Origin: Escherichia coli | GTDB taxonomy: Bacteria; Pseudomonadota; Gammaproteobacteria; Enterobacterales; Enterobacteriaceae | Reading direction: 5' to 3' (one strand) | Assembly: GCF_016026235.1 (NCBI RefSeq) | Contig: NZ_CP065613.1 | DNA length: 64,000 nucleotides | Part shown: piece after piece, positions 47,001 through 56,781 of the stretch | How positions within the stretch are numbered: the stretch's first letter is position 1 | How the letters are laid out: each line of letters opens with the position of its first letter | Translations under genes and position numbers: made by a program | Notes under the pieces: generated by a model | What the model saw: the letters and a program-made list of their open reading frames with translations, nothing else | Told to the model about the DNA's origin: nothing | The model's database searches: none

Positions 47001-47986
47001 ATGACTTGCGACCGGAGGCGAGTAGCTACATTGCGAACCTTGCAGCAGCGAATACCATATTCACCACGCGTCTGCATGAGCGTCTGGGTAATACGTACTA
47101 TACCGACATGGTGACGGGTGAGCAGAAACAAACCACTATGTGGATGCGCCATGAAGGTGGTCATAATAAATGGCGTGATGGCAGCGGCCAGCTGAAAACC
47201 CAAAGCAATCGCTATGTTCTGCAACTGGGAGGCGATGTCGCGCAGTGGAGCCAAAACGGCAGCGACAGCTGGCATGTTGGGGTCATGGCGGGATATGGCA
47301 ACAGCGACAGCAAAACCATTTCCTCGCGAACCGGTTATCGTGCAAAAGCGAGTGTGAACGGATATAGCACCGGCCTCTATGCCACCTGGTATGCCGATGA
47401 CGAGTCGCGTAATGGCGCGTATCTCGACAGTTGGGCGCAGTACAGCTGGTTTGATAACACAGTGAAAGGGGATGACTTACAAAGTGAATCCTATAAATCA
47501 AAAGGATTTACCGCTTCACTGGAAGCTGGATACAAACACAAATTAGCTGAATTTAATGGCAGCCAGGGAACGCGTAATGAATGGTATGTTCAGCCGCAAG
47601 CACAGGTTACCTGGATGGGAGTCAAAGCCGATAAGCACCGCGAAAGCAACGGAACCCTCGTTCATAGCAACGGTGATGGCAATGTTCAAACCCGACTTGG
47701 CGTAAAAACCTGGCTGAAGAGCCACCATAAAATGGATGACGGTAAATCCCGCGAGTTCCAGCCGTTTGTAGAAGTGAACTGGCTGCATAACAGTAAGGAT
47801 TTCAGCACCAGTATGGATGGCGTGTCCGTCACTCAGGATGGAGCCCGAAATATTGCTGAGATAAAAACCGGGGTGGAAGGACAGCTAAATGCCAACCTGA
47901 ATGTCTGGGGGAATGTGGGCGTTCAGGTTGCCGATAGGGGATATAATGACACCTCTGCAATGGTTGGCATTAAGTGGCAATTCTGA
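44003..47986 (+). CDS. Large AIDA-I-type autotransporter adhesin, EhaA-like (1327 aa from MNKIYRLKWN start)
   Basis: Extended signal peptide MNKIYRLKWNRSRNCWSVCSELG; repetitive passenger; Pro-rich linker PEPDPMPNPEPNPNPEPNPNPTPTPGP (about 46900..46985); C-terminal beta-barrel ending ...GIKWQF. Confidence 0.85.
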   Translation: MNKIYRLKWNRSRNCWSVCSELGSRVKGKKSRAVLISAISLYSSLALSKDVTVSEDHTAVFGKDNQTIDYRISVTDNANLVINATDTSRPRLTLASGGGLDITGGKVTINGPLNFLLKGTGFLNVSNAGSELYADDLYESNSGMRHDQGYFNVSNGGKIHVKGTSRLTYTQGNVSGEGSQVNAGTFFMGVYGGYGGNQFLSVNNGGEVNAREHISLGYYDQRSDTTLVVSDGGKISAPKISLSTNSELALGAQEGSAAKAAGIIDAEKIEFVWAKTSDKKITLNHTDKNATISADIVSGSEGLGYINALNGTTYLTGDNSAFSGKVKIEQNGALGITQNIGTAEINNRGKLHLKADDSMTFANKISGNGTISIDSGTVALTGNNYAFSGYIDVASGAVAVISEDKNIGRADLDVDGKLQINANKDWVFDNDLQGRGIVEINMGNHEFSFDEFAYTDWFQGSLAFQNTAFNLEKNAEFLQRGGITAGQGSQVTVGKGAHSISTLGFSGGTVDFGALAAGAQMTEGTVNVSKTLDLRGEGVIQVSDSDVVSSVSRDIDSALSLTEVDDGNSTIKLVDAQGAEVLGDAGNLQLQDKNGQILSSSAQRDIQQNGQKAAVGTYDYRLTSGVNNDGLYIGYGLTQLDLHATDSDALVLSSNGKSENAADLSAKITGSGDLAFSSQKGQTVSLSNKDNDYTGVTDLRSGTLLLNNDNVLGNTHELRLAAETELDMNGHSQTVGTLNGSADSLLSLNGGSLTVTNGGTSTGSLTGSGELNIQGGTLDIAGDNSNLTANVNIANSANVLVSHAQGLGSANVENNGTLALNNSAEKRAAASVNYTLGGNLTNNGTLMTGMSGQQAGNVLVVKGNYHGNNGQLVMNTVLNGDDSVTDKLVVEGDTSGTTAVTVNNAGGTGAKTLNGIELIHVDGKSEGEFVQAGRIVAGAYDYTLARGQGANSGNWYLTSGSDSPELQPEPDPMPNPEPNPNPEPNPNPTPTPGPDLNVDNDLRPEASSYIANLAAANTIFTTRLHERLGNTYYTDMVTGEQKQTTMWMRHEGGHNKWRDGSGQLKTQSNRYVLQLGGDVAQWSQNGSDSWHVGVMAGYGNSDSKTISSRTGYRAKASVNGYSTGLYATWYADDESRNGAYLDSWAQYSWFDNTVKGDDLQSESYKSKGFTASLEAGYKHKLAEFNGSQGTRNEWYVQPQAQVTWMGVKADKHRESNGTLVHSNGDGNVQTRLGVKTWLKSHHKMDDGKSREFQPFVEVNWLHNSKDFSTSMDGVSVTQDGARNIAEIKTGVEGQLNANLNVWGNVGVQVADRGYNDTSAMVGIKWQF

Positions 47987-48127
47987 TCTGAATAATGAGT
48001 AAAAGGAGAGAGAGCCGAACGGGAGATAATTCGGCTCTCTGTGTCATTTTCTTGCAGCCAGCTTTATCAGTCAGAGTGAAGACTCGCAGATTTAGCTGGC
48101 GCACAAGATTTAATCAAGGTGTGTTCA

Positions 48128-49216
48128 ATGGCTTCGCATGATTTGAGTGTTTTTTTGGAAGAGTTCGGGGCAACGGTGAATTTGACGTTGCCTGGTATCG
48201 TGTCCGAAAAAGAACGGCTTTTACTCAAGCTGCTAATGGAGGGAATGTCGGTTACAGAAATCTCACAGTACAGAAATCGCAGTGCAAAGACAATTTCACA
48301 TCAAAAGAAGCAGCTGTATGAAAAACTAGGCATCCAGAGTGATATTACCTTCTGGCGGGATATCTTTTTTCAATATCATCCGCAAGTCATCAGTGGCACG
48401 GGAAATAAAAATAATTTTTATATCCCTGATAACCGTTGTCACCATATCGTCACGCCTGAAGCCATCAGTCTGGCGTTGGAAAACCACGAATTCAAACCGT
48501 GGATCCAACCGGTTTTCTGCGCGCAGACTGGGGTACTGACGGGCTGTGAGGTACTTGTCCGCTGGGAACATCCACAAACGGGAATTATCCCACCGGATCA
48601 GTTTATTCCTCTGGCGGAGTCATCCGGTCTTATTGTCATAATGACCCGCCAACTGATGAAACAGACTGCGGATATTCTGATGCCGGTAAAACATTTGCTG
48701 CCGGACAATTTCCATATTGGCATCAACGTCTCGGCGGGTTGTTTTTTGGCAGCGGGATTTGAAAAAGAGTGTCTGAACCTGGTTAAGAAATTAGGTAACG
48801 ATAAAATCAAGCTGGTTCTCGAGCTAACGGAACGTAACCCTATTCCGGTAACGCCAGAAGCCAGAGCGATATTTGACAGCCTTCATCAGCACAACATTAC
48901 CTTTGCGCTGGATGACTTTGGTACGGGTTATGCGACCTATCGTTACTTGCAGGCGTTCCCGGTCGATTTTATTAAGATCGATAAGTCATTTGTGCAAATG
49001 GCGAGTGTCGACGAAATCTCCGGTCATATTGTGGACAATATTGTCGAACTAGCGCGTAAGCCTGGTCTGAGTATCGTGGCGGAAGGGGTAGAAACCCAGG
49101 AGCAGGCGGATTTAATGATCGGTAAAGGCGTTCACTTTTTGCAGGGCTATTTGTACTCTCCGCCAGTACCGGGTAATAAATTTATCTCTGAATGGGTAAT
49201 GAAAGCAGGTGGTTGA
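48128..49216 (+). CDS. pdeL: PdeL (YahA) c-di-GMP phosphodiesterase with N-terminal LuxR-type HTH and C-terminal EAL domain
   Basis: HTH (LLLKLLMEGMSVTEISQYRNRSAKTISHQKK) plus EAL-domain motifs; synteny after betT region. Confidence 0.9.
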   Translation: MASHDLSVFLEEFGATVNLTLPGIVSEKERLLLKLLMEGMSVTEISQYRNRSAKTISHQKKQLYEKLGIQSDITFWRDIFFQYHPQVISGTGNKNNFYIPDNRCHHIVTPEAISLALENHEFKPWIQPVFCAQTGVLTGCEVLVRWEHPQTGIIPPDQFIPLAESSGLIVIMTRQLMKQTADILMPVKHLLPDNFHIGINVSAGCFLAAGFEKECLNLVKKLGNDKIKLVLELTERNPIPVTPEARAIFDSLHQHNITFALDDFGTGYATYRYLQAFPVDFIKIDKSFVQMASVDEISGHIVDNIVELARKPGLSIVAEGVETQEQADLMIGKGVHFLQGYLYSPPVPGNKFISEWVMKAGG

Positions 49217-49257
49217 TGTAAACCGCTATTCACAGCGCATCGGGAGGTTGGCAGCGA

Positions 49258-50190
49258 TTAATTCTCCCGATGCAGTAAATCCTGATAGATCCCCGTTAAT
49301 ATGCCATTTGGCGCAAATTGTTTTTTAATCCACTGCGTCACCTGACCCGTAGCAGAATGCTGAGTCGCCAGTAACATGCGCGAATCCTGGCGCGGATTAT
49401 GGATTTGTCGGGTAACCAGCAGGGATTGCGTCATTGCCTCACGGACCATGTAATCCGGCAAAAAACCAATTCCTTCACCTAAAATCTGGCACTGACATTT
49501 GGTGTTGAAATCTGGCACCAGAATTGACTCCTGCCCGTGCAGCAACCAGCCCACTTTTTTATTAATCGTATGCGCGGTGTCCTCCACCATAATATTAGGG
49601 TAGAGACGCAGTTGGCTTTCGGCGATGGGTTCCGGCACAAAGGCTAACGGGTGATCCGGGGCGATAGCAAAAGCCCAGCGAATCGCGCCAATTTCAGTGT
49701 AATCAATACCGCCGCCGTCCAGTAGTGTATCGGGTGCGCCGATGGCGATATTGGCCTGATTATTAATAATCGCATCCCAGACGCCGTTATACACTTCGGT
49801 GGTGACGGTAATCTGGCAGGTAGGAAACTGCTTTTTCAGCACCTGTAACAAGCGTGCGGTGTGTTTGGGCGTATAAAGCAGCTGATTAATACAAATGCGC
49901 ACACGCGCTTCTATGCCCTGCGAAATAGTATCGATACTGCGTTTGATGGCGTGAAAATCATTCAGCAGGTCGGTAGCTTTGCGGAAAAAATAACGCCCGG
50001 ACTCCGTTAACTCAATGCTGCGGGTACTGCGAGTGAACAACACCACATCCAGCCCCGTTTCCATACGCTTAATGGTGTAGCTAATGGCGGAAGTGGTTAA
50101 ACCCAACTCGTCTGCGGCTTTACTGAAGCTGCCAAATCGCGCAGCGGTAGTAAATGCCAACAGATTCTCTTCGGTAAAAACTGAGTTCAT
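49258..50190 (-). CDS. yahB: YahB LysR-family transcriptional regulator, 310 aa
   Basis: LysR HTH at N-terminus; synteny. Confidence 0.85.
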   Translation of the reverse strand: MNSVFTEENLLAFTTAARFGSFSKAADELGLTTSAISYTIKRMETGLDVVLFTRSTRSIELTESGRYFFRKATDLLNDFHAIKRSIDTISQGIEARVRICINQLLYTPKHTARLLQVLKKQFPTCQITVTTEVYNGVWDAIINNQANIAIGAPDTLLDGGGIDYTEIGAIRWAFAIAPDHPLAFVPEPIAESQLRLYPNIMVEDTAHTINKKVGWLLHGQESILVPDFNTKCQCQILGEGIGFLPDYMVREAMTQSLLVTRQIHNPRQDSRMLLATQHSATGQVTQWIKKQFAPNGILTGIYQDLLHREN

Positions 50191-50281
50191 TAAACCATTC
50201 TCGCCATTATCTAATATGAATTTCTCCAGCCATGACTGTAGAGGTATCGATTAAAGATAGATAATCATTTTTGAATAACTT

Positions 50282-50779
50282 TTAATACCCGTCGCGTTTA
50301 GTCGTCGCTTCGCTTAATTTTTGTCCGCCATATTCTGAAACTATCCCCACGCAGTTACCCGCCAGAAAACCCAGTAACGTCACCGTCCAGTTCATCCCGC
50401 AGGCAAAAAACAGCGTCATGCCGAGAAAGCCACCGGGAATGAATGACAGTAACCAGAAACGTCCTTGCCAGACCACTACCGCTGAGAAAGGCACGGTAGT
50501 AATCACGCTCGCCCAGAACCCGGAAATCCCACTTACAGAGGCCAGCCAGCCGGAAGCCAGCGCGGCAAAAAACGCCCACACCATCCCGGAATAGTTAACC
50601 GCCAGACTTCTGATAAACCCTGATTTACCGCCGCCTGCGGCATAAAAACTGCAAAAGGCGACGAAGCCAATGGTTCCTAATAATTCCCATCCCTGAGAAA
50701 GCCCAACATGTGAAGATACTAACTGCCAAAGCCCTGCACAAACACCGACGGTTATACCCGTTGCAGTGAGTCCGTTCAT
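50282..50779 (-). CDS. yahC: YahC inner-membrane protein (165 aa from MNGLTATGI)
   Basis: Hydrophobic multi-helix sequence; synteny. Confidence 0.8.
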   Translation of the reverse strand: MNGLTATGITVGVCAGLWQLVSSHVGLSQGWELLGTIGFVAFCSFYAAGGGKSGFIRSLAVNYSGMVWAFFAALASGWLASVSGISGFWASVITTVPFSAVVVWQGRFWLLSFIPGGFLGMTLFFACGMNWTVTLLGFLAGNCVGIVSEYGGQKLSEATTKRDGY

Positions 50780-51037
50780 CTTGTTCCCCCTCTGGTTAGA
50801 CATGGACGAAAGCTGCGCTTATATGTGCAGACTATAGAGAAATAAAACCTGATTGAGTGAAAGGGTATCGGGTCAAAGAAACAAATATTGCACTACCGCA
50901 CACTGCGAAAAGATTGTTGAACATCATTCAACAAAAAGGCGAAATACGGCGAATTAAATTTAAGCGGGTTCTTTTATCAGATTAACGTTGCTATTCTCAA
51001 TTCATCGAAAACAGCCACAAAAATCAGGGGAATGTTA

Positions 51038-51643
51038 ATGAGTATAAAAAATCTACCTGCCGACTATTTATTGGCTGCACAACAGGGCGATATCGATAAA
51101 GTAAAAACCTGCTTTGCGCTGGGTGTCGATATTAATACCTGCGATCGCCAGGGGAAAACGGCAATTACGCTGGCAAGTTTATATCAGCAATATGCTTGTG
51201 TTCAGGCATTAATTGATGCCGGAGCGGATATTAATAAACAAGACCAGACCAGTTTAAATCCTTTTTTAATCAGTTGCCTGAACGGTGATTTAACCCTGTT
51301 ACGAATTATTTTACCGGCTAAACCCGATCTTAATTGTGTAACCCGTTTTGGCGGTGTCGGCCTGACGCCTGCCTGTGAAAAAGGCCATTTAAGTATTGTA
51401 AAAGAGCTTTTGGCGCACACCGATATTAACGTTAACCAGACCAACCATGTTGGCTGGACGCCGCTGCTTGAAGCGATTGTGCTTAATGATGGTGGTATTA
51501 AACAGCAGGCGATTGTGCAGTTATTGCTGGAACACGGTGCCAGCCCGCATCTGACCGATAAATATGGCAAAACGCCGCTGGAACTGGCGCGGGAACGGGG
51601 CTTTGAAGAGATTGCGCAGTTACTGATTGCCGCAGGTGCATAA
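51038..51643 (+). CDS. yahD: YahD ankyrin-repeat protein, 201 aa
   Basis: Repeated ankyrin-like motifs (GKTAITLAS, GWTPLLEA, GKTPLELA). Confidence 0.85.
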   Translation: MSIKNLPADYLLAAQQGDIDKVKTCFALGVDINTCDRQGKTAITLASLYQQYACVQALIDAGADINKQDQTSLNPFLISCLNGDLTLLRIILPAKPDLNCVTRFGGVGLTPACEKGHLSIVKELLAHTDINVNQTNHVGWTPLLEAIVLNDGGIKQQAIVQLLLEHGASPHLTDKYGKTPLELARERGFEEIAQLLIAAGA

Positions 51644-51682
51644 ACCGGGAGGCTTGCTATCAACACACCAGAAAAACGGTGT

Positions 51683-52546
51683 GTGTGGGCGCTAACTGCG
51701 GATGCGGATTTTCTGGCGCAGCGGGGGCAAGGACAGGTTGAACAGGTCTTTGCCAGAGCGGTAAATATCGCACTCCCGGCTCGCCAGCAGTTGCTGACGC
51801 TGCTTTGTGAAGAGTACGACAATGCGCCAAACAGTTGTCGGTTGGCACTCACTCACTTTGATGATCTGTTCCGGCATGGTGATAAGGTTCAGTTTGACGA
51901 TCAAGGTATTACGGTTGGTCAACATCTTCATATAGAGATGAGTCGTTGTCGGCGTTGGCTGTCCCCAACCTTGCAAATGACCGCTGTGAATTTTCACCTT
52001 ATCGCCTGGCAACAGTGGCACGACATTATTCATCAGCACCTGGGGGAAAATGAAACCCTGTTTAATTATCGCGGCGATAATCCGTTTTATCAGGCGTTAA
52101 ATAAAGAATTACATATTAAACGACGGGCAGTTATTCAGACAGTAAACGATAAGCAAAATATCGCCTCAGCGGTCGCCAGTATGATGGGGTTAGGGATTGG
52201 CCTTACGCCATCAGCCGACGATTATTTAACAGGTCTGGCGCTTATTTTATTTATTCCCGGGCATCCGGCGGAAAAATACAAAGAGGAATTTTATCTCGGT
52301 CTGCAACGCGGCAGAAATAATACCACATTATTAAGTGCCATAACGCTGGAAGCCGCATTACAACAACGCTGCCGGGAAAATATTCATCGTTTTATTCACA
52401 ACATTATTTATGACATTCCTGGGAACGCAACTCAGGCAATAGAAAAAATTAAACATATTGGCTCCAGTTCCGGCTGCGACATGCTGTATGGCATGGCCGA
52501 TGGTTGTGCGCTGAGCCAAACCTACGGAGGGAATTATGTCAGTTAA
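51683..52546 (+). CDS. yahE: YahE (DUF2877 family), 287 aa
   Basis: Synteny; paralog class of YlbF/AllH. Confidence 0.8.
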   Translation: MWALTADADFLAQRGQGQVEQVFARAVNIALPARQQLLTLLCEEYDNAPNSCRLALTHFDDLFRHGDKVQFDDQGITVGQHLHIEMSRCRRWLSPTLQMTAVNFHLIAWQQWHDIIHQHLGENETLFNYRGDNPFYQALNKELHIKRRAVIQTVNDKQNIASAVASMMGLGIGLTPSADDYLTGLALILFIPGHPAEKYKEEFYLGLQRGRNNTTLLSAITLEAALQQRCRENIHRFIHNIIYDIPGNATQAIEKIKHIGSSSGCDMLYGMADGCALSQTYGGNYVS

Positions 52547-54083
52547 AATAGTCATTAAACCGAATACCTATTTTGATTCTGTCTCGCTGATGTCTATCTC
52601 CACGCGTGCAAATAAACTCGATGGCGTCGAGCAGGCATTTGTGGCGATGGCGACCGAAATGAACAAAGGCGTGCTGAAAAATTTAGGGCTGCTGACGCCG
52701 GAGCTTGAGCAGGCGAAAAACGGCGACCTGATGATTGTCATTAACGGCAAAGCGGGCGCGGACAACGAGCAGTTGCTGGTAGAGATTGAAGAACTGTTCA
52801 ACAGCAAAGCGCAAAGTGGCTCGCACGAGGCGCGTTACGCCACCCTTGCCAGCGCCAAAAAGCATATCCCGGAAAGTAACCTAGCGGTGATTTCGGTCAA
52901 CGGTCTGTTTGCCGCTCGCGAAGCACGTCAGGCGCTGCAAAATGACCTCAACGTGATGCTGTTTTCCGATAACGTCTCGGTTGAAGATGAACTGGCGCTC
53001 AAGCAGCTGGCCCACGAAAAAGGGCTGCTGATGATGGGGCCAGACTGCGGCACGGCGATTATTAACGGCGCGGCGCTCTGTTTTGGTAACGCCGTGCGTC
53101 GCGGCAACATCGGTATTGTTGGCGCATCCGGCACCGGCAGCCAGGAACTGAGCGTCCGTATCCATGAATTTGGCGGCGGCGTTTCACAGCTGATCGGCAC
53201 CGGCGGGCGCGACCTGAGCGAGAAAATCGGCGGCCTGATGATGCTCGATGCCATCGGCATGCTGGAAAACGATCCGCAAACTGAAATCATCGCGCTGATC
53301 TCCAAACCGCCCGCGTCTGCGGTGGCCCGTAAAGTGCTGGAACGTGCGCGCGCCTGCCGCAAGCCGGTGGTGGTCTGCTTCCTCGGTCGTGGCGAAACGC
53401 CGGTGGATGAGCAGGGGCTACAGTTTGCCCGCGGCACCAAAGAGGCGGCGCTGAAAGCGGTGATGCTCTCCGGCGTGAAACAGGAACATCTCGACCTGCA
53501 TACCCTGAACCAACCGTTGATTGCTGATGTGCGTGCGCGCCTGAAACCCCAGCAGAAATACATTCGTGGCCTGTTCTGCGGCGGCACCCTGTGCGACGAA
53601 ACCATGTTCGCGGTGATGGAAAAACAAGGTGATGTTTACAGCAACATCCAGCCCGATCCTGAATTCCGCCTGAAAGATATCAACCGCAGCATCAAACACA
53701 CCTTCCTCGACTTTGGCGATGACGACTTCACCAACGGCAAGCCGCACCCGATGATTGACCCCACCAACCGCATCAGTCGGTTGATCGAAGAAGCGCGCGA
53801 TCCAGAAGTGGCGGTGATCGTGATGGATTTTGTGCTCGGATTTGGATCGCATGAAGATCCGGTTGGTTCCACCATCGATGCGATCAAAGAAGCGAAAGCG
53901 ATCGCCGCAGCCGAAAGTCGTGAGTTGATCATTCTCGCCTATGTGCTGGGCACCGATCTTGATACGCCATCGTTAGAACAACAAAGCCAGATGCTGCTTG
54001 ATGCCGGCGTGATTCTGGCGAGCAGCAGCACCAATACCGGATTGCTGGCGCGTGAATTTATCTGCAAAGGGGAGGAAGCCTGA
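52536..54083 (+). CDS. yahF: YahF, FdrA-like acyl-CoA synthetase (NDP-forming)/succinyl-CoA-ligase-alpha-like protein, 515 aa
   Basis: CoA-binding and ligase-like Gly-rich motifs; overlaps yahE stop. Confidence 0.85.
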   Translation: MSVKIVIKPNTYFDSVSLMSISTRANKLDGVEQAFVAMATEMNKGVLKNLGLLTPELEQAKNGDLMIVINGKAGADNEQLLVEIEELFNSKAQSGSHEARYATLASAKKHIPESNLAVISVNGLFAAREARQALQNDLNVMLFSDNVSVEDELALKQLAHEKGLLMMGPDCGTAIINGAALCFGNAVRRGNIGIVGASGTGSQELSVRIHEFGGGVSQLIGTGGRDLSEKIGGLMMLDAIGMLENDPQTEIIALISKPPASAVARKVLERARACRKPVVVCFLGRGETPVDEQGLQFARGTKEAALKAVMLSGVKQEHLDLHTLNQPLIADVRARLKPQQKYIRGLFCGGTLCDETMFAVMEKQGDVYSNIQPDPEFRLKDINRSIKHTFLDFGDDDFTNGKPHPMIDPTNRISRLIEEARDPEVAVIVMDFVLGFGSHEDPVGSTIDAIKEAKAIAAAESRELIILAYVLGTDLDTPSLEQQSQMLLDAGVILASSSTNTGLLAREFICKGEEA

Positions 54084-55501
54084 TGAGCCCGTCACTGTTT
54101 AGCCAACCGTTGAACGTTATTAACGTCGGTATCGCCATGTTTAGCGATGACCTGAAAAAGCAGCATGTAGAAGTGACTCAACTCGACTGGACGCCGCCGG
54201 GGCAGGGCAATATGCAGGTGGTGCAGGCACTGGACAACATTGCCGATTCGCCGCTGGCAGACAAAATCGCCGCCGCTAACCAGCAGGCGCTGGAGCGCAT
54301 TATTCAGTCGCATCCGGTTTTGATTGGCTTTGATCAGGCGATTAACGTGGTGCCTGGCATGACGCCGAAAACCATTCTTCACGCCGGGCCGCCGATCACC
54401 TGGGAAAAAATGTGCGGCGCAATGAAAGGCGCGGTCACCGGGGCGCTGGTGTTCGAAGGGCTGGCGAAAGATCTCGACGAGGCGGCTGAACTGGCGGCCT
54501 CCGGGGAGATCACCTTCTCGCCGTGCCACGAGCACGACTGCGTGGGTTCGATGGCGGGCGTCACCTCTGCCTCGATGTTTATGCACATCGTGAAAAACAA
54601 AACCTACGGCAACATCGCTTACACCAACATGAGCGAGCAGATGGCGAAGATTTTGCGTATGGGCGCTAACGACCAGAGCGTGATTGACCGCCTGAACTGG
54701 ATGCGCGATGTGCAGGGGCCAATGCTGCGCGACGCGATGAAAATTATCGGCGAGATCGATCTGCGCTTAATGCTGGCGCAGGCGCTGCATATGGGCGATG
54801 AGTGCCATAACCGCAATAACGCCGGGACGACGCTGCTGATTCAGGCGCTGACGCTGGGAATTATTCAGGCGGGCTACTCCGTCGAGCAACAGCGCGAAGT
54901 GTTTGAGTTTGTCGCCAGCAGCGACTACTTCTCCGGCCCGACGTGGATGGCGATGTGTAAAGCGGCGATGGATGCGGCGCACGGCATCGAATACAGCACC
55001 GTCGTTACCACCATGGCGCGTAACGGCGTCGAGTTCGGCCTGCGGGTTAGCGGCCTGCCGGGGCAATGGTTTACCGGCCCGGCGCAGCAGGTGATCGGCC
55101 CGATGTTTGCCGGTTATAAGCCGGAAGATTCGGGGCTGGATATCGGCGACAGCGCCATCACTGAAACCTACGGCATTGGCGGATTTGCCATGGCGACCGC
55201 GCCCGCTATCGTCGCGCTGGTGGGCGGCACGGTGGAAGAAGCTATTGATTTCTCCCGTCAGATGCGCGAAATCACCCTCGGTGAAAACCCCAACGTCACC
55301 ATTCCGCTGCTCGGTTTTATGGGCGTGCCGTCGGCAATCGACATCACCCGCGTGGGTAGCAGCGGCATTCTGCCGGTGATCAACACCGCCATCGCCCATA
55401 AAGATGCGGGCGTCGGCATGATTGGCGCGGGCATTGTGCATCCACCTTTTGCCTGCTTCGAGAAAGCCATTCTTGGCTGGTGCGAACGTTACGGCGTCTG
55501 A
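54083..55501 (+). CDS. yahG: YahG (DUF1116 family), 472 aa
   Basis: Start overlaps yahF stop (ATGA); synteny. Confidence 0.85.
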   Translation: MSPSLFSQPLNVINVGIAMFSDDLKKQHVEVTQLDWTPPGQGNMQVVQALDNIADSPLADKIAAANQQALERIIQSHPVLIGFDQAINVVPGMTPKTILHAGPPITWEKMCGAMKGAVTGALVFEGLAKDLDEAAELAASGEITFSPCHEHDCVGSMAGVTSASMFMHIVKNKTYGNIAYTNMSEQMAKILRMGANDQSVIDRLNWMRDVQGPMLRDAMKIIGEIDLRLMLAQALHMGDECHNRNNAGTTLLIQALTLGIIQAGYSVEQQREVFEFVASSDYFSGPTWMAMCKAAMDAAHGIEYSTVVTTMARNGVEFGLRVSGLPGQWFTGPAQQVIGPMFAGYKPEDSGLDIGDSAITETYGIGGFAMATAPAIVALVGGTVEEAIDFSRQMREITLGENPNVTIPLLGFMGVPSAIDITRVGSSGILPVINTAIAHKDAGVGMIGAGIVHPPFACFEKAILGWCERYGV

Positions 55502-55514
55502 CCTACATGTTCAT

Positions 55515-55785
55515 GCCGGATGCGGCGTGAACGCCTTATCCGGCCTACGAATGGCGCGAGAATCTGTAGGCCTGATAAGCGTAGCGCATCAGGCATTTGT
55601 CACCATTGCCGGATGCGGCGTGAACGCCTTATCCGGCCTACGAGTGGCGCAAGAATTTGTAGGCCTGATAAGCGTAGCGCATCAGGCATTTGTCACCATT
55701 GCCGGATGCGGCGTGAACGCCTTATCCGGCCTACGAATGGCACGAGAATTTGTAGGCCTGATAAGCGTAGCGTATCAGGCAATTT
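55515..55785. repeat. REP/BIME cluster: three tandem ~93-bp units of palindromic REP sequences
   Basis: Unit GCCGGATGCGGCGTGAACGCCTTATCCGGCCTACGAATGG...GCCTGATAAGCGTAGCGCATCAGGCATTTGTCACCATT starting at 55515, 55608, 55701. Confidence 0.85.
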
Positions 55786-55830
55786 GGCGTTGGTCATAAC
55801 CCCATCACCCTCTGTAGCGGACATAACAAC

Positions 55831-56781
55831 ATGAAAGAGCTTGTGGTCGTTGCCATTGGTGGCAACAGCATTATCAAAGATAACGCCAGCCAGTCGATTG
55901 AGCATCAGGCGGAGGCGGTGAAAGCCGTCGCCGATACGGTGCTGGAAATGCTGGCTTCCGATTACGACATTGTGCTGACCCACGGTAACGGGCCGCAGGT
56001 CGGGCTGGATTTACGCCGTGCGGAGATTGCCCACGAGCGCGAAGGGCTGCCCTTAACGCCGCTGGCGAACTGTGTGGCAGATACGCAGGGCGGCATCGGC
56101 TATCTGATCCAACAGGCGCTGAATAACCGGCTGGCGCGTCACGGCGAGAAGAAAGCCGTCACCGTGGTGACTCAGGTGGAAGTGGATAAAAACGATCCAG
56201 GTTTTGCCCATCCCACCAAGCCCATTGGTGCATTCTTCAGTGAAAGCCAGCGTGACGAATTACAAAAGGCAAACCCTGACTGGCGTTTTGTTGAAGATGC
56301 CGGACGGGGCTATCGCCGCGTGGTCGCCTCGCCGGAACCGAAACGTATTGTCGAAGCACCTGCCATTAAAGCGCTGATCCAACAAGGTTTTGTCGTAATT
56401 GGCGCGGGCGGCGGTGGAATTCCGGTAGTGCGTACTGAAGCGGGGGATTACCAAAGCGTGGACGCGGTTATCGACAAAGATCTCTCTACCGCGCTGCTGG
56501 CCCGTGAAATTCACGCCGACATTCTGGTGATCACCACCGGCGTCGAAAAAGTCTGTATCCACTTTGGTAAACCCGAGCAGCAGGCGCTGGATCGGGTGGA
56601 TATTGCCACCATGACTCGCTATATGCAGGAAGGACATTTCCCGCCCGGCAGCATGTTGCCAAAAATCATCGCCAGCCTGACGTTCCTGGAACAGGGCGGT
56701 AAAGAAGTGATTATCACCACGCCGGAATGCCTGCCCGCGGCGCTGCGTGGCGAAACGGGCACCCATATTATTAAAACGTAA
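55831..56781 (+). CDS. yahI: YahI carbamate-kinase-like protein, 316 aa
   Basis: Amino-acid kinase family N-terminus (VVVAIGGNSI) and overall carbamate kinase pattern. Confidence 0.9.
   Translation: MKELVVVAIGGNSIIKDNASQSIEHQAEAVKAVADTVLEMLASDYDIVLTHGNGPQVGLDLRRAEIAHEREGLPLTPLANCVADTQGGIGYLIQQALNNRLARHGEKKAVTVVTQVEVDKNDPGFAHPTKPIGAFFSESQRDELQKANPDWRFVEDAGRGYRRVVASPEPKRIVEAPAIKALIQQGFVVIGAGGGGIPVVRTEAGDYQSVDAVIDKDLSTALLAREIHADILVITTGVEKVCIHFGKPEQQALDRVDIATMTRYMQEGHFPPGSMLPKIIASLTFLEQGGKEVIITTPECLPAALRGETGTHIIKT

Follow-up and report, generated by a model that had tools for sequence, protein, structure and literature searches.

A tandem BIME-2 array of variable copy number between yahG and yahI of Escherichia coli: an allele of REP23/yahH

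Introduction

Between yahG and yahI of Escherichia coli lies a run of near-identical palindromic repeats, which raises the question of what these repeats are, how their number changes, and whether they affect the expression of the genes on either side. The locus was examined in a 64-kb stretch of E. coli DNA, hereafter the window. Whether the copy number of BIME-2 elements tunes operon expression is a question raised by recent work on REP325, another repeat array of this kind.

REPs of the Y type are imperfect palindromes of 30-40 nt in which a GTAG is conserved 5' of the foot and two bases of the stem are mismatched, and BIME-2 elements are defined by z2 and y REPs with a short S linker, in multiple tandem copies (PMC3333891). 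BIMEs are viewed as non-autonomous elements that are mobilised and amplified by TnpA-REP, and as a general source of intergenic polymorphism they are already in the literature (PMC3333891).

The array itself is already known as well. In a y-ome survey of 2024 it has the entry 'yahH (filled with REP23 sites)' (PMC11551758). The version in EHEC EDL933 was characterised by Neuhaus et al. (2016) as a REP/BIME element that lies between yahG and yahI and is made up of five repeat blocks; the authors noted that yahH had earlier been withdrawn from annotation owing to its REP structure, and suggested that yahDEFGIJ form an operon (PMC4765031). In K-12 genomes, a yahH ORF is annotated within the array. 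The array of the window is an allele of this catalogued REP23/yahH element, and copy-number polymorphism, known for the class, is now quantified here. A literature search found nothing on the use of the yahG-yahI array as a VNTR/MLVA marker.

Position and anatomy of the array

The array and its surroundings consist of the following features (all on the plus strand).

54083-55501: yahG, 472 aa, AllG/DUF1116 family (Pfam AllG, 8.8e-88; RefSeq homologues named yahG)
55499-55501: stop codon of yahG, TGA
55502-55514: 13-nt spacer from the yahG stop to the foot of the first REP hairpin
55514-55606: BIME-2 unit 1, 93 nt (from repeat searches, REP pattern matches and the definitions of PMC3333891); Y iREP 55515-55548 (palindrome 55515-55544, CTAC 55545-55548), tail-to-tail S linker 55549-55565, Z2 REP 55566-55594 (GTAG 55566-55569), head-to-head l linker 55595-55607
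55607-55699: BIME-2 unit 2, 93 nt, 97% identical to unit 1; Y iREP 55608-55641, S linker 55642-55658, Z2 REP 55659-55687, l linker 55688-55700
55700-55780: BIME-2 unit 3, terminal, with a Z2 REP at its end; Y iREP 55701-55734, S linker 55735-55751, Z2 REP 55752-55780, C>T at 55773
55781-55830: unique right flank preceding the yahI start codon, the final ~38 nt being common to REP-free alleles
55831-56781: yahI, 316 aa, carbamate kinase family (homologous RefSeq loci named yahI)
56791-58173: yahJ, beginning 9 nt past yahI

Tandem Repeats Finder delimited the array at 55514-55786, with a period of 93, 2.9 copies, 95% matches, no indels and a score of 502. A repeat search of the window returned three copies in register, 55514-55606, 55607-55699 (97%) and 55700-55792 (87%), the last of which departs only past its Z2 REP, where the unique flank begins. 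On the plus strand each unit starts with an inverted Y REP, i.e. a 30-nt imperfect palindrome followed by CTAC, and passes through the 17-nt tail-to-tail linker into a Z2 REP, i.e. GTAG followed by a 25-nt imperfect palindrome, and then into the 13-nt head-to-head linker. The string GCCGGATGCGGCGTGAACGCCTTATCCGGCCTAC occurs exactly three times, at 55515, 55608 and 55701, while GTAGGCCTGATAAGCGTAGCGCATCAGGC is found on the plus strand exactly at 55566 and 55659 and, with a single C>T at 55773, at 55752. Read on the minus strand, the Y REPs are three exact copies of GTAG-GCCGGATAAGGCGTTCACGCCGCATCCGGC (55515-55548, 55608-55641 and 55701-55734). The palindromes of both types contain a two-base internal stem mismatch, AA/GC in the Y stem.

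Apart from these six REPs, three Y and three Z2 in alternating orientation, the 64-kb window contains no others of this kind, and in 100 dinucleotide-preserving shuffles of its sequence neither REP pattern was matched once, even with 3 mismatches permitted. The repeat finder, the REP patterns and the flanking genes thus bear out an earlier sequence-only reading of the window, which had recognized tandem REP/BIME units between yahG and yahI. Its boundaries, 55515-55785, lie within one base of those found here; its unit of ~93 bp, repeated three times with few substitutions, agrees with the period of 93, 2.9 copies and 95% matches; and the two palindromic strings that it quoted are both in the window three times each, one C>T in the third Z2 copy included.

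The array occupies the sole sizeable gap of a same-strand cluster, yahD-yahE-fdrA-yahG / yahI-yahJ, whose layout is operon-like: fdrA shares one base with yahG, 9 nt separate yahI from yahJ, and in the nearest genome (FDAARGOS_943) yahD-yahE-fdrA form a contiguous run. Neither a sigma70-like promoter nor an intrinsic terminator was found on either strand of 55502-55830. The best tail 3' of a Z2 hairpin is AUUUGU, which falls short of the GC-rich hairpin plus U tract of an intrinsic terminator.

Assignment to BIME-2

The array combines Y REPs, Z2 REPs in the opposite orientation, short linkers, tandem copies of variable number and an extragenic location, downstream of the yahG stop at 55501 and ahead of the yahI start at 55831. 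The 17-nt linker sits between CTAC and GTAG, and the 13-nt linker aligns with the 'l' linker of naRNA4. By its sequence, the array is an allele of REP23 and a BIME-2 cluster of the E. coli REP family, in which three Y-S-Z2-l units stand in tandem. A longer, Z1-like form of the REP is visible in unit 2 of strain MB19.

Identity with BIME-1 (RIB) was considered and rejected, as the array is without the IHF consensus, has Z REPs of the short type and consists of tandem units. The sequence-only reading had listed IHF and gyrase binding, stabilisation of upstream mRNA and recognition by RAYT transposases as established properties of BIMEs. The last three are published for the class, but the IHF statement does not apply to this array, because the IHF site belongs to the long L linker of BIME-1 (PMC3333891) and the IHF consensus WATCAANNNNTTR is absent from the array, its single match in the window being at 61304.

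In vitro, binding and cleavage by TnpA-REP need GTAG 5' of the hairpin foot and unpaired bases in the stem (PMC3333891), and both of these RayT substrate features are carried by all six REPs. RayT-type processing is probably the origin of the element, with RayT acting in trans. RayT is known to act in trans, with one REPtron per genome. No RayT homologue was detected in the 64-kb window (best tblastn E = 0.61); in K-12, rayT lies ~90 kb from yahG, beyond the reach of a window of this size. As to gyrase, some BIME-2 elements show enriched cleavage, mostly at Y REPs (PMC6379681), and by analogy the Y REPs of the array are probably gyrase sites on DNA; the yahG-yahI locus is not listed in those gyrase supplement tables that were available as text.

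Copy number among E. coli genomes

The sequence-only reading had suggested that the number of units may vary between strains, and counting units across E. coli genomes confirmed it. The two flanks were joined without the repeat and used as the query against complete genomes, so that the span of the match gave the intergenic length. Two samples of evenly spaced rows down the ranking were taken with different flank lengths (600-nt and 1,000-nt queries); they agreed and were pooled, giving 113 informative complete E. coli genomes as a sample of the 5,048 in which the locus is present, distributed as follows.

0 units: 16% of 113 genomes, intergenic length 94-95 nt
1 unit: 42%, 142-153 nt
2 units: 3%, 235-246 nt
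3 units: 3%, 329 nt
4 units: 28%, 410-427 nt
5 units: 8%, 514-515 nt

No genome among the 113 had more than 5 units. These counts provide a first estimate, at the population level, of how many units the locus carries: 0-5, most often 1 or 4. Because 16% of the sampled genomes are without any REP at the site, the array is dispensable. A direct sequence search found the REP-free allele in 655 of 5,426 genomes, always as a single copy; the possibility that this allele is a dispersed boxC repeat was rejected on account of that single copy. It nonetheless resembles boxC-like elements that occupy the same slot in other genera.

Unit number mostly tracks the identity class of the flanks, and therefore lineage, with occasional exceptions. 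K-12-like backgrounds have 4 units, and O157:H7 and O55:H7 have 5. A single unit is found where the flanks are 98.0-98.5% (600-nt query) or 97.4-97.6% (1,000-nt query) identical to those of the window, O111:H8 included, and also in UTI89-like (B2-type) backgrounds, which have a different 5' spacer: from the yahG stop to the foot of the first hairpin there are 23 nt in B2-type alleles versus 13 nt in the window. The three-unit allele of the window represents a minority state, the whole 701-nt query being matched at an identity of at least 99% by only 7 records. Among complete genomes, three-unit alleles were found in PapRG-06-5, NCTC9022 and CFT073.

How the copy number changes

By far the nearest complete genome is FDAARGOS_943, which has 5 units. 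Its identity to the window reaches 99.9% across the 10.5 kb upstream, against 98.0% for the next best genome, and 100% across the joined flanks of 1 kb. Removal of 186 nt from its array gives exactly the intergenic region of the window, with the junction anywhere in a 115-nt identical tract, and unit 3 of the window is identical to its terminal unit 5. The same is seen elsewhere: K-12 (4 units) and HCM-26C-1 (2 units) are exactly 186 nt apart, and strain 16843 (2 units) and UTI89 (1 unit) exactly 93 nt, the crossover tracts between alleles comprising 37-115 identical bases. Because the allele differences are exact multiples of 93 nt within identical tracts, the alleles indicate that copy number changes through unequal recombination in register, or replication slippage, between units. 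A transposase is not needed for this step.

An exact loss of 186 nt within a 115-nt perfect tract is also what would arise if a true five-unit allele had been collapsed by a short-read assembler, and a 465-nt array is longer than typical short reads; the near-identity of the background to FDAARGOS_943 (99.9% over 10.5 kb, 100% over the 1-kb flanks) would suit such an error. However, genuine recombination leaves the same signature, equivalent exact differences separate other pairs of complete genomes, and complete genomes with 3 units do exist, one of which, PapRG-06-5, shares the terminal unit. Moreover, yahG is intact in the window and there is no IS5 insertion, so the window derives from a different strain from FDAARGOS_943. 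An assembly artefact is thus regarded as quite unlikely, and the three units are probably a natural product of in-register exchange or slippage.

Reading frames and small RNAs within the array

Two kinds of gene can be read into the repeats. The relevant features are listed below.

55520-55834, plus: repeat-made ORF, 104 aa, in the frame called YahH or hypothetical protein in O157 and NCTC9022
55551-55799, plus: second repeat-made ORF, 82 aa, in the frame called yahH in K-12
55569-55638, minus: match to Rfam naRNA4 (RF02564), 78 bits, made up of Y REP, l linker and Z2 iREP
55662-55731, minus: second match to naRNA4 (RF02564), 78 bits, of the same composition

To see how the units vary, 21 distinct unit sequences from 11 alleles were aligned. 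The variable columns were distributed as follows.

17-nt S linker: 8 of 17
13-nt l linker: 4 of 12
GTAG/CTAC: 0 of 8
Z2 palindrome: 3 of 25
Y palindrome: 7 of 30

Four of the seven variable columns of the Y palindrome represent two compensatory changes of stem pairs from G-C to A-T (in one unit), and two of the seven lie in the loop. The pattern points to a hairpin under constraint, or to concerted evolution with the genomic pool of REPs, and not to a coding sequence.

According to the first of the gene readings, the repeats are coding repeats of a genuine small protein, YahH, their REP-like character being secondary or of dual use. Two plus-strand frames are indeed free of stops through the whole array (the ORFs of 104 and 82 aa), many RefSeq genomes have an annotation here, either 'protein YahH' or hypothetical protein, and in EHEC the ORF has ribosome footprints (RPKM 56, coverage 0.61) and was called probably translated (Neuhaus et al. 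2016, PMC4765031). However, 93 nt equal 31 codons, so that with two stop-less frames open reading frames are automatic, and the length of the ORF tracks unit number, from 42 to 166 aa. It is missing or at most 42 aa long in ~58% of the sampled genomes (those with 0 or 1 unit), the annotations differ in frame and start codon, and 1-nt indels in the S linker shift the frame inside the O157 array and in the terminal unit of K-12. The variation among units follows hairpin logic rather than codon logic, neither ORF reaches any Pfam or NCBIfam cut-off, the gene had already been withdrawn as REP (PMC4765031), and footprints on a multi-copy REP sequence are hard to map uniquely. With its unstable frame and length, its absence from most genomes, its hairpin-type substitutions and no family match, yahH was rejected as a real conserved gene, and a protein-coding role is considered very improbable; the genes that many RefSeq genomes show here as 'yahH' or hypothetical protein are by-products of a 31-codon repeat. 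The EHEC footprints could mean that the array is translated, and according to work cited in PMC4765031 translation would abolish Rho-dependent attenuation.

The other gene reading makes the units genes for naRNA4-like, HU-binding noncoding RNAs that condense the nucleoid, a role proposed for REP325 units by Qian et al. (2015). The Rfam gathering score of 59.5 is exceeded twice on the minus strand (78 bits each), the sense strand, at 53.9, staying under the threshold. The matches above threshold are, however, antisense to transcription from yahG to yahI, no promoter-like site was found on the minus strand within the array, and the Rfam model is in effect a generic Y-linker-Z pair of REPs. On these grounds the sRNA gene reading was rejected, real as the Rfam match is, and such a function at this locus is hardly credible. 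In addition, a 2026 preprint reports REP325/naRNA4 to be without measurable nucleoid compaction and to act locally in its operon (bioRxiv 10.64898/2026.03.23.713779).

A predicted effect on yah expression

On the yahG-sense strand, the Y REPs are predicted to fold into RNA hairpins of -20.5 kcal/mol and the Z2 REPs into hairpins of -11.5 to -12.5 kcal/mol, and the fold of the whole array has a z-score of -6.6 against shuffles. What such hairpins can do is best known from REP325 in yjdMN, where the downstream gene is lowered ~8-10 fold by attenuation that is partly Rho-dependent, while the upstream message is protected and a ladder of hairpin-ended transcripts is formed (bioRxiv 10.64898/2026.03.23.713779). 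Genome-wide, tandem gene pairs with a REP between them show a raised ratio of upstream to downstream expression; the effects are context dependent, and that on half-life is not universal (bioRxiv 10.64898/2026.03.23.713779). A REP located <16 nt from a stop codon lowers translation of the upstream gene, according to Liang, Rudd and Deutscher (2015) as cited in PMC12306157. In the window, 13 nt separate the TGA (55499-55501) from the hairpin foot at 55515, within that distance.

Taken together, these data allow a mechanism to be proposed. Transcription of the array from yahG would produce stable hairpins in each unit, which would block 3'-exonucleases and stabilise the upstream yahDEFG message; the same hairpins would cause partial, partly Rho-dependent attenuation and lower yahIJ relative to yahEFG. 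The number of units would set the strength of the stabilising or attenuating effect, and the first hairpin, 13 nt past the yahG stop, may also dampen the translation of YahG. RayT, in trans, would recognise GTAG and the stem mismatch, and probably seeded the element. By analogy with REP325, it is likely that the array stabilises yahDEFG mRNA and partly attenuates read-through into yahIJ, and the decoupling of yahEFG from yahIJ put forward in the sequence-only reading is plausible on the model of yjdMN. As a joint explanation, a BIME-2/REP23 allele that changes its copy number in register and would serve as a hairpin-based stabiliser and attenuator is considered the best account of the locus, with a probability of roughly 0.85.

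Passenger or selected hairpin

It is conceivable that the array is a selfish or neutral passenger, seeded by RayT and resized by recombination, with no effect on yah expression visible to selection. BIMEs have been published as non-autonomous elements mobilised and amplified by TnpA-REP, their effects on half-life are not general, presence and copy number differ freely among lineages down to the 16% of genomes with none, and unrelated elements are found at the same place in other species. The last point emerged from a pattern scan of one genome per species, which returned 17 contigs of other species with a yahG-yahI junction. After the yahG stop, these carry the following.

Escherichia albertii and E. 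whittamii: BIME-2 units
Pseudocitrobacter faecalis: an atypical Y-Z1/Z2 cluster
Several Kluyvera species and Klebsiella spallanzanii: boxC-like CCCTCTCCC/GGGAGAGGG elements
Kluyvera ascorbata and K. sichuanensis: a different GTAG...CTAC pair of REPs
Raoultella, Citrobacter and Enterobacter: single GC-rich hairpins in 79-114 nt

The hairpin of the REP-free E. coli allele, CCCTTCTCCC/GGGGAGAGGGG, resembles the boxC-like half elements. Yet every junction examined keeps some stable hairpin near the yahG stop, even where there is no REP: a GC-rich one starts 1-24 nt past the stop at all 17 junctions of other species and in the REP-free E. coli allele. The local folds at the junctions have z-scores of -0.9 to -6.5 against mononucleotide shuffles, which are weak statistics. 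The compensatory stem changes and the invariant GTAG also speak against a mere passenger, though concerted evolution could yield both, and the closest studied analogue, REP325, strongly affects its own operon. A purely neutral array is therefore judged possible but unlikely, and the stabiliser and attenuator role of the BIME-2 array is preferred.

The retention of the hairpin position with turnover of its occupant suggests a bolder idea, namely that the site past the yahG stop is a selected 'hairpin slot' filled by unrelated elements in Enterobacteriaceae. On this idea the BIME-2 copy number of E. coli (0-5, heritable and for the most part constant within a lineage) would adjust, in a graded way, both the yahDEFG:yahIJ expression ratio and the translation of YahG. 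This idea is speculative and, as a whole, rather doubtful. The natural alleles of 0, 1, 2, 3, 4 and 5 units in otherwise similar backgrounds could be used to test the tuning of an operon by BIME-2 copy number. The yah cluster is poorly characterised, so any regulatory consequence would be narrow in interest.

Comparison with known systems

The closest known element is the REP23/yahH array of K-12 and of EHEC EDL933 (X002), which has the same site, the same flanks and the same 93-nt unit of Y, 17-nt linker, Z2 and 13-nt linker. Between K-12 and the window, the units show 97-100% identity. The differences are in copy number (3 in the window versus 4 in K-12 and 5 in O157:H7), in a few linker substitutions and in the terminal unit, which reads GCGTATCAGGCAATTTGG in the window versus GCGCATCAGGCAGTCTGG in K-12. 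From the BIME-2 family at large, in the nomenclature of Gilson and Bachellier (Ton-Hoang et al. 2012, PMC3333891), the array shows no difference of substance, as both have alternating Y and Z2 REPs, a short tail-to-tail linker, tandem amplification, an extragenic location and strain-variable copy number, together with GTAG and the stem mismatch as determinants for TnpA-REP. BIME-1 (RIB-RIP) shares the Y REP, contains a Z REP of a related type and is likewise found at the 3' ends of genes, but it is present in single copy, with a longer Z1 REP and a long L linker bearing an IHF site.

REP325, the six-unit BIME-2 in yjdM-yjdN from which naRNA4 derives, is likewise a tandem Y/Z array within a same-strand operon. 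Its orientation relative to transcription is opposite to that of the yah array, so that the naRNA4-sense strand is here antisense to yahG and yahI; the second hairpin is 7 nt shorter in the yah array, which has 3 units against 6, and the spacer differs. With these differences, REP325 represents the best available model for the role of attenuator and stabiliser proposed for the array between yahG and yahI.

Allelic variation between yahG and yahI

In the window, the yahG stop codon is separated from the first REP by a 13-nt spacer (55502-55514, CCTACATGTTCAT), and the same spacer is found in the K-12, 2013C-4225 and O157 alleles. The B2-type alleles of UTI89 (locus L010, 601-623) and 16843 carry instead a 23-nt spacer (TCTGTAAAGTGCGCGTTGTTTCT), which is unrelated to the 13-nt one. 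The two spacers lie on either side of the 15 nt reported as the limit for effects of REP on translation (Liang et al. 2015, as cited in PMC12306157). Within 55509-55533 of the window, pairing is possible between the 5' spacer (GTTCATGCCG) and the 3' half-stem and loop of the first Y REP (CGGCGTGAAC), an alternative hairpin that local folding favours in unit 1 only; this pairing may be due to chance.

In Escherichia albertii NBRC 107761 (L015), where yahI matches at 3797-3834 (minus strand), the intergenic region upstream of it holds two BIME-2 units. Between them the final ~45 nt of yahG occur a second time, together with the stop codon and the 5' spacer; the register of duplication was therefore different there and took in the end of the gene. 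In the four-unit array of E. coli MB19 (L011, 601-1027), the second unit is 99 nt long; its REP (GTAGGCCTGATAAGACGCGAAGCGTCGCATCAGGC) is longer and Z1-like, and its linkers differ as well. This unit looks like the product of conversion from another BIME locus, giving rise to an 'atypical' BIME.

The yah cluster in related genomes and on plasmids

The nearest complete genome, FDAARGOS_943, was compared over window 45000-55500 and NZ_CP065615.1 2524583-2536001 (L012). This genome is rich in insertion sequences (IS600, ISSfl3, IS2, IS66 and the IS5 family) and is ~918 nt longer than the window across this stretch; an IS5-family transposase is annotated adjoining yahD, and its insertion may be the source of the extra nucleotides. 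The annotation of FDAARGOS_943 lists yahG as a pseudogene, interrupted by an internal stop. In the window the gene is intact, and the window's strain is therefore close to FDAARGOS_943 but distinct from it, and possibly belongs to a Shigella/EIEC-like lineage.

Beyond the species, the C-terminal 150 aa of YahG (window 55049-55498) are 95-100% identical in contigs of Raoultella, Kluyvera, Citrobacter, Klebsiella and Enterobacter (L020-L074). Identity between these genera is not usually so high, which suggests that the cluster is either strongly constrained or was recently transferred. With window 55002-55501 and 55831-56330 as queries, yahG-like or yahI-like sequence was found at ~120 plasmid places (94-96% identity), and parts of the yah cluster are therefore also plasmid-borne. 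Two examples are:

NZ_CP163453.1 53497-53991, plasmid match
NZ_CP074577.1 168063-168562, plasmid match

The REP-free allele

The site equivalent to window 55502-55830 is occupied in E. coli JNE21-003 (L003, 1703-1796) by a REP-free allele of 94-95 nt, in which the BIME and its immediate flanks are replaced by unique sequence containing a hairpin (CCCTTCTCCC/GGGGAGAGGGG). This sequence is present in 655 of 5,426 genomes as a single copy, and it is similar to the boxC-like elements of Kluyvera and Klebsiella, which occupy the identical position.
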